Below, one piece after another: positions 3,376 to 12,931 of a stretch of 64,000 bases of DNA (its first letter is position 1; each line of letters opens with the position of its first letter). Position numbers and translations under genes: made by a program. Source of the stretch: a virus (Duplodnaviria > Caudoviricetes); IMG/VR virus record IMGVR_UViG_3300028048_000056, positions 64,001-128,000 of that record. One strand, written 5' to 3'. The notes beneath the pieces are model-generated. The model saw only the letters and a list, made by a program, of their open reading frames with translations, was not told the DNA's origin and searched no databases.

Positions 3376-3715
3376 AGCTGTTTCACAAGCTAACCCATTC
3401 ACAGATAAGCACGAAGGTGCTGAGCGAGAAAAGCAAAAGATGTGGACAGGTTTCCAGTCGTCTAATATAGACGGCATGGCCTACAAAGTTGAAAAAGAAC
3501 AGCTGTGGGTTCGTTTCAAAGATGGGTCTGTATACACCTATTTCGACGTTCCTCTAAACATTGCTAAGGGTTTATACAAAGCTGGGTCGAAAGGAAAATA
3601 CTTCTGGAAAAAGATTCGTAATAATCCTAGATATCAGTATCAAAGATTATCTGCGTCTCTCCGACATCAGCTTGACAATTATGCAGGTCTCCGAGAAGAC
3701 CTAGGAGGTGAGTGA
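3356..3715 (+). CDS. KTSC domain protein
   Basis: SSNIDGMAY...LWVRFKDGSVYTYFDVP...AGSKGKYFWKKIR matches the KTSC pattern; GTG start after GGGGG RBS. Confidence 0.8.
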   Translation: MLRLNCRAVSQANPFTDKHEGAEREKQKMWTGFQSSNIDGMAYKVEKEQLWVRFKDGSVYTYFDVPLNIAKGLYKAGSKGKYFWKKIRNNPRYQYQRLSASLRHQLDNYAGLREDLGGE

Positions 3716-4124
3716 ATTGAGGAAATTCAGAATTAACTCTGGAGCGAGTGTCATGCCTAGCAAATTTGAAAATCCAGTAGATGAGGAATTTCTCAATGAT
3801 GTTAGCAATATCATTACGCTTGAAGACGGTACTTCACTTGATTTGAGCCGAGCTCGACTATTGTATAATCCGAATACACATCAGGTGCAGCTGACAGATG
3901 CCGAAGCCAACCCCAAGGACTTCGTTCAACTTGCTACGCTCACCATTACCAAAGATAAGCCTGAGGTGAACAACGATGAGTCATTCGAGGAACCGACCGA
4001 AGAGGGAACAGAAGAAGAAGAAGCTCTCGGCGAAGGCGCGGGAGAAGCAGTTGTGCGAGATACAGGAGACGTCGATGAAGAAATGCCAGCAGATGGAGAT
4101 GATTCCGGTGAGTTCTTCCAGTGA
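3708..4124 (+). CDS. Acidic hypothetical protein (putative internal head protein)
   Basis: RBS AGGAGG; N-terminal RINSG; core resembles a module of ORF 72..2333; acidic tail. Confidence 0.6.
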   Translation: MSELRKFRINSGASVMPSKFENPVDEEFLNDVSNIITLEDGTSLDLSRARLLYNPNTHQVQLTDAEANPKDFVQLATLTITKDKPEVNNDESFEEPTEEGTEEEEALGEGAGEAVVRDTGDVDEEMPADGDDSGEFFQ

Positions 4125-4185
4125 CCACATGGTTACACCCGCTAGATTAGCAATTCTTCGTAGATATTTTAAGATAGACTAAGAG

Positions 4186-4216
4186 TAGGTCGGTTCAGCT
4201 GAACCGACCTATTTCT
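4186..4216 (+). terminator. Intrinsic terminator
   Basis: Perfect 26-bp palindrome TAGGTCGGTTCAGCTGAACCGACCTA followed by TTTCT. Confidence 0.7.
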
Positions 4217-4228
4217 ATATCACGAACT

Positions 4229-4286
4229 GCTTATATGCACGGTGAGCATATAATACAGTATACACCGTATACCACTGCATTTAAGC
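4229..4286. repeat. 58-bp inverted-repeat element, copy 1
   Basis: GCTTATATGC-N38-GCATTTAAGC. Confidence 0.85.
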
Positions 4287-4316
4287 AAAACCGTACAAGA
4301 AACAGGAGGTTAGTAT

Positions 4317-5519
4317 ATGCTATTCAAGGTCAGTCAGATATCACCAACGGTAGAGTTGGTATTCGCCGATGCTGAGCGATTTATTAACGTCTACCCGAGT
4401 TATCATCAGAATGGAGATTTAATCTACGCTAATGTCAATCCCGCAGCGTGGACTTTAGTAGGAACTGAATACAGATGGGAGACCACTTTCGTAGGTATCA
4501 CGGACATGACAGTACCGGTAATTCAGCTAATATACTCATACAATGCTACTCAAGCACAGAGACAGCAGCAATATGAAGCATTTAAGTCCATAACATCCGT
4601 CGAAACTGTTGAAAACAAGTTGTATCTACGAGCACCGATACGACCAAGCATTCCCTTCCGTATAAGATATCGTCGACTAGATAGGATGGATTTGGCAATA
4701 TCACTAAACCGATATCTAGGTATTGGTTTAGGTGTAGATGCACACCATGACAGTCTTGACGTATCTATGACCGCTATGAATCCGCTAACCGGTCAGTCAT
4801 TACCACTCACTACCACGCTTCAAGAAGCAGGTATAGGGTATGCAGGCGTACTGTCTTCTGATATGTTCGCTCGGATTCTTAAACTCGAGGACACCTACAA
4901 CAAGACGCTAACCCAACCTTATCGAATTGAGGGGTATGCTTCCGCCATTGCTGCTACGCCAGTCACAACCTACTACGCAGACATTGCAGCAGTTCAAGCT
5001 GTTGCCTCCGGTACCTGGTACAAGGAATGCGCACTATACAGCATAACAGATGCTGCTGACTTTGACACTGCGGTACACCTATTTTACCAACAGCAAGCTA
5101 CGTTGCTTGATTTAACACATATTTACACTGGCAACGTAGAATCCTTTAGTTATGCGTTAGCTGCTAACGTGTTGCTACAAGATATCAAAGGACTACAATT
5201 ACTTGATACACATAAAGCTACTGACATCAGCTATATGTTCGCTGATGATTCTGCCCTAGAATCTATCGATTTAGGTGTTTGTGACCTCAGGAACGTTCTG
5301 AATGTTGAAGGACTGTTCAAAGGCTGCACCGGGTTACAATACCTAGACGTTTGCAGTATAGACTTTACTAAGAAAGACGGTCAAGGAACTGCTCTGATTG
5401 AGCAGCCAGATGTGTTCACAGGAGTCCCTAATTCTTGTGAAATTTGGGTAGGCGGTCAAGCGCAACGAGATGCTATAATTGCTGTCTACCCGAATCTAAC
5501 CGGCATCACTTATAATTGA
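4317..5519 (+). CDS. Putative tail fibre/receptor-binding protein with BspA/DUF285-like LRR C-terminus
   Basis: DISYMFADDSALESIDL..NVEGLFKGCTGLQYLDV repeats; AGVLSS motif; N-terminal segment like Bacillota phage fibre domains. Confidence 0.55.
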   Translation: MLFKVSQISPTVELVFADAERFINVYPSYHQNGDLIYANVNPAAWTLVGTEYRWETTFVGITDMTVPVIQLIYSYNATQAQRQQQYEAFKSITSVETVENKLYLRAPIRPSIPFRIRYRRLDRMDLAISLNRYLGIGLGVDAHHDSLDVSMTAMNPLTGQSLPLTTTLQEAGIGYAGVLSSDMFARILKLEDTYNKTLTQPYRIEGYASAIAATPVTTYYADIAAVQAVASGTWYKECALYSITDAADFDTAVHLFYQQQATLLDLTHIYTGNVESFSYALAANVLLQDIKGLQLLDTHKATDISYMFADDSALESIDLGVCDLRNVLNVEGLFKGCTGLQYLDVCSIDFTKKDGQGTALIEQPDVFTGVPNSCEIWVGGQAQRDAIIAVYPNLTGITYN

Positions 5520-9442: not shown

Positions 9443-9642
9443 TAACGAAACAGGAACGCAAGGAAGCTGAAAAGGCTGCTCGTTCGCTGTATCAAGATGT
9501 GCTGAAAGTGGAAGTAAAGGAGGACCCAGACAACGAGTCCTCCTTGCTCCTTACCATCACTCGTGGTCGAGTTATGCCAACTGTTCGCATAGATAGAAAA
9601 GCGGTGACTCCAAAACCAATATTTCCTAAGAAAGGGGAATGA
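9439..9642 (+). CDS. Small hypothetical protein
   Basis: ATGA overlaps at both ends; RBS GAGGTGG. Confidence 0.6.
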   Translation: MITKQERKEAEKAARSLYQDVLKVEVKEDPDNESSLLLTITRGRVMPTVRIDRKAVTPKPIFPKKGE

Positions 9643-10583
9643 ATATGAGTAGCACACTTAATCTGACTATGCTTTCACCTGAACGCTTCCAAGCGATATA
9701 TAATTCGTTGAATGAAGCCGAGCAGAAAACTCTTAGGACAATTCTAGAAGAGCTCGCTGAGACAGGTGAAAGTGAAACCTATGAAAAGGTGTGGCTGGAA
9801 GACTACGAAGAAATTCCAGTCGACATCGATACTTTTCTAGAAGACCCTAGATATCTAGGAAACGCAACCAATAACGGTACTCAGATATATCCATTCTGGC
9901 GTGAACAGCTACGAAAGATATTTGCAAGCGGAGATACCGATTATGACGAGATTGCATTCACCGGTGCTATTGGAATTGGCAAGACCCAAATTGCGGTGTA
10001 TGCGATTGCATATCTAACGTATAGGCTGCTGTGCTTGAGGCATCCTCAACGGTATTTTGGATTTGCGGATACCGACGAGATTGCCATATTCTTCTTCAAC
10101 GCTACTGTCGCACTGGCACAGGCTGTCGGATATGGTAGACTGCACAACTGCTTAATGGAATCCCCTTGGTTCTTAGACCATGGTTCTATTCACGGCTCAC
10201 AAGACAACCCGTACTATGTACCTGGAAAACACATTGCGATTAAAGCCGGTTCTAAAGCAAGTCACGGATTAGGTCAGCAAATATTCTGCCTTGTTGGTTC
10301 GACTCTGATTGACACTGACCAAGGAGTCCTGCCTTTATCAGAATTGGAAGGTAAGACTGTATCGGTACTTCAAAGGAACGAACAAGGTCATCTTTCTTGG
10401 GTAAAAGCGCCAGTGTTAAAAACCAAGTATGCTACTAAAACTATCAGAATAACTCTCGAAAATGGTGAGACTATAGAAGGTACTCCTGAACATCGAGTAA
10501 TGCTGGTAGATGGTACCTATAAAGCATTAGGTGATTTAACCGAAGACGACGAATTAATGGATTTCGAGGTGGACCATGCGTAA
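9639..10583 (+). CDS. terL: Terminase large subunit N-fragment fused to split intein N-half
   Basis: Walker A FTGAIGIGKT; IYPFW adenine-binding region; ends with intein N-domain and TAA. Confidence 0.9.
   Translation: MNMSSTLNLTMLSPERFQAIYNSLNEAEQKTLRTILEELAETGESETYEKVWLEDYEEIPVDIDTFLEDPRYLGNATNNGTQIYPFWREQLRKIFASGDTDYDEIAFTGAIGIGKTQIAVYAIAYLTYRLLCLRHPQRYFGFADTDEIAIFFFNATVALAQAVGYGRLHNCLMESPWFLDHGSIHGSQDNPYYVPGKHIAIKAGSKASHGLGQQIFCLVGSTLIDTDQGVLPLSELEGKTVSVLQRNEQGHLSWVKAPVLKTKYATKTIRITLENGETIEGTPEHRVMLVDGTYKALGDLTEDDELMDFEVDHA
10287..10580 (+). mobile_element. Split intein N-fragment (IntN, 98 aa)
   Basis: Block A CLVGSTLI, block B GTPEHRVM, acidic end LTEDDELMDFE, then stop. Confidence 0.9.
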
Positions 10584-11462
10584 ATATCATATATACCGAC
10601 ACACAACACCTGACGGTAAGGTTTATATAGGTTGTACATGCCAGAATCCTGAAGCTCGTTGGGGTAGGGGCGGCGAAAACTACCAATCCAATAAAGAGTT
10701 CTGGTGTGCAATTCAAAAATATGGGTGGGATAATGTCAAGCATGAAATTCTCAGAGTAGAACTTGATAGACAAACCGCCTTAGCTTTAGAATATGAATAC
10801 ATTCATCAGCACAAAGCTACTAACCCTGATTATGGTTATAATCACATATCCGGACCTAAATATCGCATGGATTTACATGAGCAATTTAGAAAGCAATATC
10901 CGAAAGGTCTAAAGGATATTGGACTAATCCTGAATATCGCGCTTTAATTTCTAGACGAGTAAGCGAAGCAAGGAAAGGAATTAGATTTACCAACGAGCAC
11001 CGTGAACATCTGCGTCAATCTAAACTTAAGATTAATCAGATAAAAGGCAATCAATGCTGGATTTACAAAGGCCATCAAGAGTCTTTAATACCAGAATCTG
11101 AGTTGAGTAGATACCTAAGTGATGGCTGGGTTTCAGGTCGACTTAATGATAAGAACATCTATATGCACAAGCAGGGTTGTATGGACATTAAAGTCACTGA
11201 GGAGGAAGTCGAGGATTATACCAAACAAGGTTGGGTATTAGGCAGAGGAGATGAGGTAAGTAAGAATATATCTAAATCACGACGAAATTTTGTGTGGAAG
11301 TACCGTGAGTTAGAGTTTGAAAGTAGCACTGACCTTACCGAGTATCTAAAGCAACACGGTTATCCTAAAATCGCGATGTCAACCGTAACCGGCTTAGCCA
11401 GAGGTGGTAAGTACACCACCTATCAAGAGCTGATGGGAACTATAAGCAAAATAAGAAAATAA
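10576..11462 (+). mobile_element. Free-standing GIY-YIG homing endonuclease, frameshifted near 10890-10893
   Basis: YHIY...KVYIGCT, NPDYGYN; -1 frame from 10890 reads AISERSKGYWTNPEYR...NEHREHLRQSK and joins ORF 11103..11462 (YLSDGWVSGR repeats). Confidence 0.8.
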
Positions 11463-11499
11463 TATAAAATCTAGAAATAAGGAAGGGAGGGGTCACACT

Positions 11500-11625
11500 G
11501 TGAAAATTACTCGAATTGAGCACATTAATCATGAGGAGCCGATAGCTGTTTATGATGTAATAGACGCTAAGCCAAATCATAATTTCTGTGTACGAGTTGG
11601 AAAACATCGTATAATTTCGCACAAT
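11500..11625 (+). mobile_element. Split intein C-fragment (IntC, 42 aa; not in ORF track)
   Basis: RBS AAGGAAGGGAGG, GTG start; MKITRIEHINHEEPIAVYDVIDAKPNHNFCVRVGKHRIISHN then +1 Cys. Confidence 0.9.
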
Positions 11626-12931
11626 TGTGGTTTCCTTTGACGAGGTGAACTTCGCACCTGGTGCGAATACCACCATGGAGAAGTCTAAGATTATGCAGAC
11701 TTACTCTTCTGTCAAAGCCAGAATCAAATCACGTTTCATTCGAAACGGAAAACTTTTGGGTAAGATGTTCTTGGTTTCTTCCAAGAAGGCACAAGACGAC
11801 TTCCTAGAAGTTTACCTAGATAAACGTAGAAAAGAGGACGACGCTGCCAGACTGTTTATCGTCGACGAACCGTTGTGGGTTGTAAAGCCGTCAGATACCT
11901 ATTGTGGTAAGAAGTTCCTTGTTGCTTACGGTTCAAAGCAACTTACTCCTCGAGTGATAGAACCCGGTGAAGACCTTGAAGCCATCAAGAAGCTCGGTTA
12001 TGAGATATTAGAAGTGCCTATCGAACTGGAGTCAGACTTCCGTTTCAATATTATTACCGCACTGCAAGACTTAGCAGGTAAGGCACTTCCCGGCACAACC
12101 AGCTACTTCAGTTACAAGATTATCAGCTCATGCTACACAGACAGACCTAGCCCCTTTACGGCTGAGGTACTTGAGATTGGTCTGAACGACCACATGGAAT
12201 ACCAGGAATTCTTTAACCTAGATGTTATTCCAAAAGAATATTTCTCTCGCCCGATGGCAATACATCTGGATACTTCATTAAAGAATGATATTACAGGTAT
12301 TTCAGGAGCCTGCTATGTAGACAATGTTCTAGCAGACACTGATGACGGTACGATTGAGAAACGTGTCTACGCTCAGGTATTCTCTGTCGGTATTAAGGCA
12401 CCGCCTGGTTCTGAAATCAGCATGGCGAAGAATCGACGGTTTATCTACTGGCTACGCAGCGTAGGTTTCAACATTGCTATAATCAGTACTGATACCTTCC
12501 AGACAGCAGAGTCACATCAGATACTGCGGGATAAGGGATTCACGACTGCCATTCGTTCTCTTGACCGAACTCCTGAAGGATATCAGACACTCCGTGAAGC
12601 TATGGTCGAGAAACGAATTAGCATGATAAGACACGCAAAGCTAGAGAATGAGCTAATCTATCTACAGCGTGACACGAGCACCGGAAAGCTAGACCACCCA
12701 GCTAATGGTTCAAAAGATATTTCAGATAGTTTAGCAGGTGCAATCTGGGATTTGAGCTTACTACCATATTCACCTGCATTGCACAACTTCGTCATGTATT
12801 CTCACGAAAAAGAAGACGTCATGCCGGCTTCTATCAACGCGATGTTCGGTGGCTTACAACCCTACGACAAGTATCAGTTCGAGAGAAGCCCAGAAGATAT
12901 CAGAATTATCCAGGAAATATCGCATTTGTAA
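11500..12931 (+). CDS. terL: IntC plus terminase large subunit C-fragment (needs +1 shift at 11635-11641)
   Basis: After a +1 shift reads CGFLDEVNF (Walker B); nuclease motifs IHLDTSLKND and SKDISDSLAG. Confidence 0.85.

Follow-up and report, generated by a model that had tools for sequence, protein, structure and literature searches.

A fractured phage terminase gene with a split intein and a C-terminal part placed in the +1 frame behind a putative recoding site

We have analysed the large terminase (TerL) gene that lies in a 64,000-nt stretch of the IMG/VR record IMGVR_UViG_3300028048_000056. This stretch is called the window here, all its features discussed below are on the + strand, and coordinates are window positions. 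The gene is fractured into an upstream piece (TerL-N) that ends in an N-terminal intein half (IntN) and a downstream piece (TerL-C) that follows a C-terminal intein half (IntC), with a GIY-YIG homing endonuclease gene between them (Table 1). In the 162-kb phage genome (a metagenome-derived linear contig, estimated to be 93% complete) it is the only large-terminase gene, and no second TerL and no terminase pieces other than these two have been found there. An earlier interpretation made from the DNA letters alone (hereafter the sequence-only reading) had described a fractured gene with a split intein and an intervening endonuclease: a 98-aa IntN at the end of TerL-N, with Cys1 encoded by TGC at 10287, a TPEH motif, an acidic tail and a stop, and about 0.9 kb further on a separate ribosome-binding site and GTG (11500) starting a 42-aa IntC. 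All these elements are found at those positions. The distance from the IntN open reading frame (ORF) to the Shine-Dalgarno (SD) and GTG region of IntC is 917 nt, the SD at 11481-11492 is strong, and the ATG of the GIY-YIG gene (10576) overlaps the IntN stop. What has to be given up is the claim that IntC is fused to TerL-C. The IntC ORF has 46 codons (11500-11637) and closes with CGFL-TGA, while the coding part of TerL-C extends from the GAC at 11639 to 12928, in the +1 frame relative to IntC.

Table 1 Layout of the fractured terminase locus, in window positions.
Feature	Position	Strand	Remarks
TerL N-extein, 216 codons, Walker A GAIGIGKT, end ...GLGQQIF	9639..10286	+	colinear with the intein-less homologue P0002
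IntN, 98 codons plus stop, Cys1 at 10287, block B TPEH, acidic tail DLTEDDELMDFEVDHA	10287..10583	+	
GIY-YIG homing endonuclease gene	10576..11462	+	Pfam E 3.5e-8; PHROG homing-endonuclease families
Shine-Dalgarno of the IntC ORF, GGAAGGGAGGGG	11481..11492	+	strong Shine-Dalgarno
IntC, 42 codons from GTG, blocks F and G VYDV...NHNF...ISHN	11500..11625	+	
First four C-extein codons Cys+1-Gly-Phe-Leu, in the IntC frame	11626..11637	+	
Proposed +1 frameshift site CTT TGA C; zero-frame stop 11638-11640	11635..11641	+	
TerL C-extein in the +1 frame, 430 codons plus stop, starts DEVNF (Walker B acidic pair)	11639..12931	+	

Sequence models hardly recognise this terminase. PHROG terminase matches are weak, PDB sequence searches with TerL or a TerL profile gave no relevant match, and the family assigned by the database to full-length TerL homologues is PF27249. 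We have therefore relied on an AlphaFold model of the intein-less homologue P0002, which was built from a 41-sequence alignment and has a mean predicted local distance difference test (pLDDT) score of 85.5. A fold search with this model retrieved the HK97 terminase first (E 4e-15), followed by D6E, T4 gp17 and Sf6 (E 4e-15 to 9e-10 overall). According to the model, with its two-domain ATPase-nuclease fold and both Walker A and Walker B, the gene product is a large terminase. P0002 is 97% identical to the window C-part and reads ...GQQIFCGFLDEVNF..., and nine intein-less IMG/VR loci (L001-L009) read ...GQQIF|CGFLDEVNF in the same way. The extein junction given by the sequence-only reading is thus confirmed by intein-less homologues, but its continuous CGFL-DEVNF spans two frames over CTT-T-GAC. 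The insertion site, F216|C217, marks the start of the Walker B strand (strand 214-221 in the P0002 model), and the comparison supports the view that splicing would rebuild this strand.

The two intein halves carry the expected signatures. Cys1 and TPEH are invariant in an alignment of five IntN sequences, and in an alignment of 16 IntC sequences Y18, D19, N28 and N42 are invariant and H41 is nearly so. With the N half alone, the Pfam model Intein_splicing (PF14890) reaches 27 bits against a cut-off of 35.8 bits, and a half domain is expected to score short. In addition, contiguous mini-inteins of the same family, 141-155 aa long, occupy the same terminase site in other proteins (P0156, P0161, P0165 and P0180). 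We have calculated the ratio of non-synonymous to synonymous substitution rates (dN/dS) for IntN, and found 0.095 between the window and L045, a separate metagenome record, and 0.086 between the IMG/VR relatives L077 and L080, whose inteins differ by a dS above 1 and are still under selection. IntC with its HN/Cys+1 is also under purifying selection. Overall, the alignments support a naturally split HINT intein of class-1 type in a fractured terminase gene. The sequence-only reading had further supposed that the pair may be a new orthogonal tool for protein ligation. Alignment with known inteins detected remote likeness to Npu-type DnaE (E ~0.03) and NrdJ-1 (E 0.11), which are the nearest solved inteins, but no close relatives. 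Since the likeness to characterised split inteins is only remote, IntN and IntC are a plausible candidate for an orthogonal ligation pair. For such a use, the extra T must go when IntC fusions are cloned.

The frame break is not confined to the window. We have run a degenerate DNA pattern for the shifted junction on metagenome contigs, and of 47 matches only two, L017 and L045, are genuine. Each of these separate metagenome records has TerL-N-IntN, an intact endonuclease, IntC-CGFL-TGA and TerL-C in the +1 frame, with an identical CTT TGA C. Their junction DNA shows two nearby synonymous differences from the window, and their exteins are just 70-80% identical to it at the DNA level. At the protein level, eight proteins start with MVSFDEVNF (P0001, P0116, P0005, P0123, P0125, P0140, P0011 and P0025), P0023 and P0135-137 start with MECFDEVNF, and P0034 starts with MDSFDEVNF. 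All of them need one extra base (T or C) straight after the Leu codon, and protein clusters as low as 69% identity start in a manner that implies the same break. The upstream counterpart is also found: P0145 is a cluster of 46-aa IntC-CGFL ORFs with ten members, and at the 50%-identity level there are more short IntC ORFs, which end in CGFV, CGML, CGLL, CAFMD or C. The +1-frame TerL-C has a dN/dS of 0.011 against the intein-less L072 and 0.045 against L045. There is no further lesion in its 430 codons, and both flanks of the break align to the TerL pieces of relatives without frame-breaking indels. Pattern scans of IMG/VR for more break alleles gave nothing or chance matches only, and the scan of GTDB genome contigs gave distant, intein-less relatives only.

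Some variants around this position deserve mention. Five IntC ORFs of 45-50 aa (P0146, P0163, P0169, P0175 and P0177) stop after CGFV, CGLL or CAFMD, or right after Cys+1, which indicates that in other lineages the position of the break varies within the first five C-extein codons. P0019, an in-frame IntC-TerL-C protein, has QRTQ added exactly at Leu|Asp (CGFL-QRTQ-DEVNF, residues 43-55), i.e., a 12-nt insert without a stop.

As IntC and TerL-C are in different frames, ordinary translation cannot make the fusion protein. If CTTT is read as one Leu step, the product becomes ...HN|CGFLDEVNFAPGANTT..., which reproduces the intein-less sequence exactly, and the peptide predicted for the spliced full-length TerL is QQIFCGFLDEVNF. 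The break coincides with CTT TGA C (11635-11641), which is the heptamer of the +1 frameshift site of prfB, the gene of release factor 2 (RF2). The Asp codon is GAC in the three frameshift alleles (window, L017 and L045) and GAT in all nine intein-less loci, and GAC places the stop in a weak UGA-C termination context. Reassignment or read-through of TGA was also considered and rejected: TGA terminates 141 of 302 long ORFs in the genome, more than any other stop codon, and so is not reassigned, and the zero frame meets another stop less than 20 codons past the TGA. Taken together, we consider it quite probable that IntC-TerL-C is made by +1 ribosomal frameshifting at CTT TGA C.

The proposed course of events is as follows. 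TerL-N-IntN would be translated from 9639, as its ORF suggests, and other ribosomes would initiate at GTG 11500 and synthesise IntC-Cys-Gly-Phe-Leu. While CUU occupies the P site and UGA-C, at which termination is poor, has entered the A site, the peptidyl-tRNA-Leu would re-pair one base forward, and decoding would restart at GAC GAG as in prfB, yielding IntC-CGFLDEVNF...TerL-C. Ribosomes that terminate instead would free a 46-aa IntC-CGFL peptide. Finally, the intein halves would associate and trans-splice to a terminase that is locally identical to its intein-less homologues. The sequence-only reading had made packaging depend on splicing; since the +1 shift would be needed as well, packaging should depend on recoding in addition to splicing.

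More distant relatives, whose cassette is homologous to that of the window, have stop-filled gaps of 25 nt or 39 nt at the same Leu|Asp spot where the window has its 1-nt break. In the IMG/VR loci L070 and L077 we read ...VHN|CGM-CTC-TGA, 36 nt with four in-frame stops, and CTC-GAT-GAA-GTA-AAT-TTC; in the IMG/VR locus L080, ...VHN|CGM-CTG-TAA-TAG, a 22-nt stretch counted from that TAA, and CTG-GAT-GAA-GTT-AAC-TTT. That is, the codons at take-off and landing are equal within an allele, but unlike between alleles (CTC/CTC in L070 and L077, CTG/CTG in L080). In all three loci, take-off is at codon 47 and a stop follows it immediately. One +1 shift rescues neither gap allele, and even if a target-site duplication caused the matched codons, expression of these genes would still require a hop. 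Some accessory signals have also been looked for. CU dinucleotides are absent from both gaps, the landing codon of L070/L077 and of L080 has no GAG- or GGAG-like element before it, and the predicted gap hairpins are no better than those of shuffled sequences (z -0.3 to -0.5). In the gap relatives, a 12-bp helix ends directly 5' of the take-off codon.

The genome of the window encodes several tRNAs outside the window (C1:13354-17179), among which are three tRNA-Leu genes with the anticodons UAG, CAA and UAA, plus tRNA genes for Pro, Gln and Ile. At the yeast Ty1 +1 site, the tRNA that slips is of this type, a tRNA-Leu(UAG) decoding CUN codons by wobble, and the phage tRNA-Leu(UAG) might serve the CUU, CUC and CUG take-off codons.

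The gap relatives bear on the best-surviving alternative, in which no frameshift takes place and TerL-C is made separately, by re-initiation at GTG 11627 after the TGA at 11638 or from an independent start. The pieces would then remain non-covalent, with TerL-N capped with CGFL and TerL-C beginning M-V-S-F-D-E. This GTG is in the TerL-C frame, 11 nt before the stop, and is used by gene callers, but no SD precedes it. L070, L077 and L080 lack a start codon in the interval from the last stop to LDEVNF, and the first Met comes 19 codons past Walker B, so re-initiation cannot cover the family; P0142 is 100% identical from that Met, to which gene callers cut the gap alleles down. The +1 reading V-S-F-D-E does retain hydrophobic residues ahead of the acidic pair, and split phage enzymes that stay unligated exist, such as T4 gp39/gp60 (bioRxiv 10.1101/2022.08.31.505936). 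On the other hand, the unligated outcome would carry a duplicated and broken Walker B strand, and the purifying selection on HN/Cys+1 of IntC makes sense only with IntC joined to the C-extein. We thus regard this alternative as improbable.

Mending of the frame in the RNA is less probable again, whether the T run is a place of transcriptional slippage or editing or the gaps are excised as tiny introns. RNA-level and ribosome-level events fit the present data equally, and the direct repeats at the gap borders (CTC...CTC, CTG...CTG) would suit precise excision too. However, a run of three Ts is much shorter than known slippage tracts, we know of no self-splicing introns of 25-39 nt in phages or bacteria, and the stop right after the take-off Leu in every allele, together with the exact RF2 heptamer, is a ribosomal and not a splicing signal. 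Equally far-fetched is a homopolymer assembly error or a dead phage with a terminase pseudogene: the extra base does lie within a T run of a linear metagenome-derived contig whose adjacent endonuclease gene has a 1-nt A-run indel of its own, seen in this genome only, but the break recurs in independent assemblies and numerous protein clusters, and the lesion-free, well-aligned and strongly conserved TerL-C described above speaks against a pseudogene.

Ribosomal frameshifting at CTT TGA C remains the preferred explanation, and several points weigh against it. Both the frameshifting and the splicing are inferred from sequence. The SD-like stimulator, which in prfB lies 3 nt upstream, is weak here (UGUGGU, with a UUC spacer before CUU; at best four of five pairs with the anti-SD), and no downstream structure is common to the window and L045. 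As the break in the window, L017 and L045 is shared through a co-converted tract, its recurrence in these three does not independently prove that the T has been selected over the long term. In addition, one 90%-identity cluster holds both in-frame (P0133 and P0134) and shifted (P0023) alleles, which suggests that the break is easily gained or lost. The inserted base in P0023, P0025 and P0034 could be C instead of T, and the T-specific pattern recovered no P0023-type sequence in the metagenome contig scan. Finally, the unshifted IntC-CGFL peptide could cap TerL-N unproductively, which looks costly. The SD of GTG 11500 and its start were also predicted to pair with the shift-site region in a 201-nt fold (probability ~0.5), and this helix is gone in 400-600-nt folds.

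We have further compared the window with L045 and with L078, the closest intein-less backbone, at the DNA level. Between the window and L045, the intein and endonuclease are 84-99% identical while the exteins are 70-80% identical; likewise, dS is 0.08-0.6 for the intein and >2 for the exteins. The identity climbs to 97-99% over the 3' part of the endonuclease gene and IntC, and drops again within TerL-C. Over the first ~40 nt of the C-extein, the window agrees with L045 at 7/7 sites that differ from L078, and past this point it follows L078, with up to 100% identity in some 60-nt bins. No co-conversion tract was found on the 5' side in the window/L045/L078 comparison. Judging from this pattern, the break travels with the cassette, lying in the ~40-nt tract that moved with the intein. 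The one-sided co-conversion suggests that the endonuclease cuts in the C-extein near the break, and the break probably sits at the cut site of the intein-less allele.

These results raise the idea that the break is a selected component of one old mobile cassette, made up of IntN, the GIY-YIG endonuclease, IntC and the break itself, which could protect its carrier and may also make the host gene dependent on the cassette. By analogy with the gap of T4 gene 60 against MobA, the break could shield the carrier from its own endonuclease. As to dependence, the short IntC ORF may permit recoding only at this distance of 46 codons, and precise loss of the intein could then be lethal. We hold this idea only tentatively, and rate it rather less likely to be right than wrong. 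If it is true, the family would form a graded natural series that begins with a 1-nt slip of the RF2 type and extends to hops of 25 and 39 nt, and would represent a second independent origin of programmed bypassing in phages.

The endonuclease gene is broken in the genome of the window only, where an A run has lost 1 nt (AAA at 10890-10892, compared with AAAA in L045 and L017). The intact gene in L017 and L045 is one ORF of 296 aa. Homology between the L045 and L080 endonucleases extends from end to end (33% identity, E 5e-56). The window gene may either be decaying, or a -1 slip at A-AAG (window 10885-10895) may restore ...FRKAISERSKGYW... in its product. A further GIY-YIG endonuclease gene is found directly upstream of the terminase gene in L045 (1509-2480) and L080 (2856-3200), and the terminase region appears to collect homing endonuclease genes.

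To our knowledge, efficient +1 frameshifting or bypassing occurs in very few natural genes, i.e., prfB, T4 gene 60 with its topoisomerase homologues, and some yeast mitochondrial genes, with a candidate in the phage Hau3. The prfB gene has a programmed +1 frameshift at CUU UGA C (reviewed in PMC5009743). The window site shares with it the identical heptamer, the zero-frame UGA followed by C, an essential product in the +1 frame and, as proposed here, a Leu-Asp junction made by a slip of the P-site tRNA-Leu from CUU to UUU. Unlike prfB, it is located in a phage terminase gene, at a distance of 46 codons from the start of a short ORF, and is carried by a mobile intein cassette, its SD-like element is weak, and no autoregulatory logic is evident.

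Fractured genes with split inteins and free-standing endonucleases have been described before, including gp41-1, NrdJ-1, IMPDH-1 and a phage terminase locus (Dassa et al. 2009, PMC2677866). The present locus is of the same build: a phage enzyme gene in two same-strand ORFs, one ending in IntN and one starting with IntC, and a GIY-YIG (or Vsr-like) endonuclease gene between the halves (PMC2677866). The acidic IntN tail and basic IntC start also resemble those of the NrdJ-1 and IMPDH-1 group in that paper. The split intein therefore joins an already known class, and the obligatory recoding that accompanies it is the unusual part. The differences are that the window intein is related to the characterised ones only remotely, and that IntC and the C-extein are in different frames here, which makes recoding necessary, with IntC not translated contiguously with its extein. 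The word 'frameshift' is absent from Dassa et al. 2009 (PMC2677866).

A translational bypass of 50 nt has been described for T4 gene 60, where it lies inside the mobA endonuclease cassette (Manning and Atkins, bioRxiv 10.1101/2022.08.31.505936). The two systems have in common that an essential gene is split by a homing endonuclease, and that the downstream piece has, close to its start, a short insert that cannot be translated and moves with the endonuclease. The take-off codon is number 46-47 here, and the T4 gap falls between codons 46 and 47; in L070, L077 and L080 the matched take-off and landing codons and the stop after take-off are shared as well. On the other hand, the gene encodes a terminase and not a topoisomerase, take-off is at Leu and not at Gly, the endonuclease is of the GIY-YIG type, and the protein would be re-ligated by an intein. 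The gaps are 1, 25 or 39 nt without an SD-like element before the landing codon, and the cassettes have no sequence homology.

The large terminase of the Streptomyces phage Hau3 has two 10-nt inserts headed by UUA, for which bypassing has been proposed (PMC10732093). As at the present locus, short blocks there disrupt the frame of a large-terminase ORF. In Hau3, however, the trigger is the rare sense codon UUA, a proposed sensor of the host state, no intein or endonuclease is involved, and the sites in the protein are others. Published phage bypass cassettes have been found in the literature in topoisomerase genes only, and text searches for an intein together with a coding gap or bypass have returned no report of the combination.

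An essential phage gene thus seems to need two rare repairs in series, recoding to make IntC-TerL-C and then trans-splicing, both brought by one selfish element. The family provides sequence-diverse variants, with breaks of 1, 25 and 39 nt whose take-off and landing codons covary, in which ribosome slipping and hopping can be studied. Gene callers fragment these terminases, which could pass for terminase pseudogenes.

Some further arrangements have been observed among the related terminases and inteins. In P0134, an in-frame IntC allele in the same 90%-identity cluster as the shifted P0023 and P0135-137, the penultimate His is replaced by Lys (...VFKN|CGML..., residues 38-46). A second contiguous intein occurs elsewhere in the terminase, in the nuclease domain (...HPANG|C...VHN|SKDISD...), in P0011, P0017, P0140 and L080 (5158-6837), and is absent from the window. 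In the distant relative L082 (2012-6299), IntN and an in-frame IntC-TerL-C are ~2.7 kb apart, and the five ORFs between them have no family match and no recognisable endonuclease. In the distant terminase of L138 (~5001-5030), an in-frame stop is present four codons past the Walker B DE (DEISF*PNQ, compared with DEISFIQNQ in L086), which may reflect reassignment of this codon or a further site of recoding. L077 carries, between IntN and the endonuclease gene, a second IntC in frame with ~160 residues of divergent TerL-C (3557-4165 and 4162-4953; ...SHN|CAFMD...). This extra piece looks like a remnant of recombination between two split-intein alleles, and the protein representative P0149, of 190 aa, resembles it.

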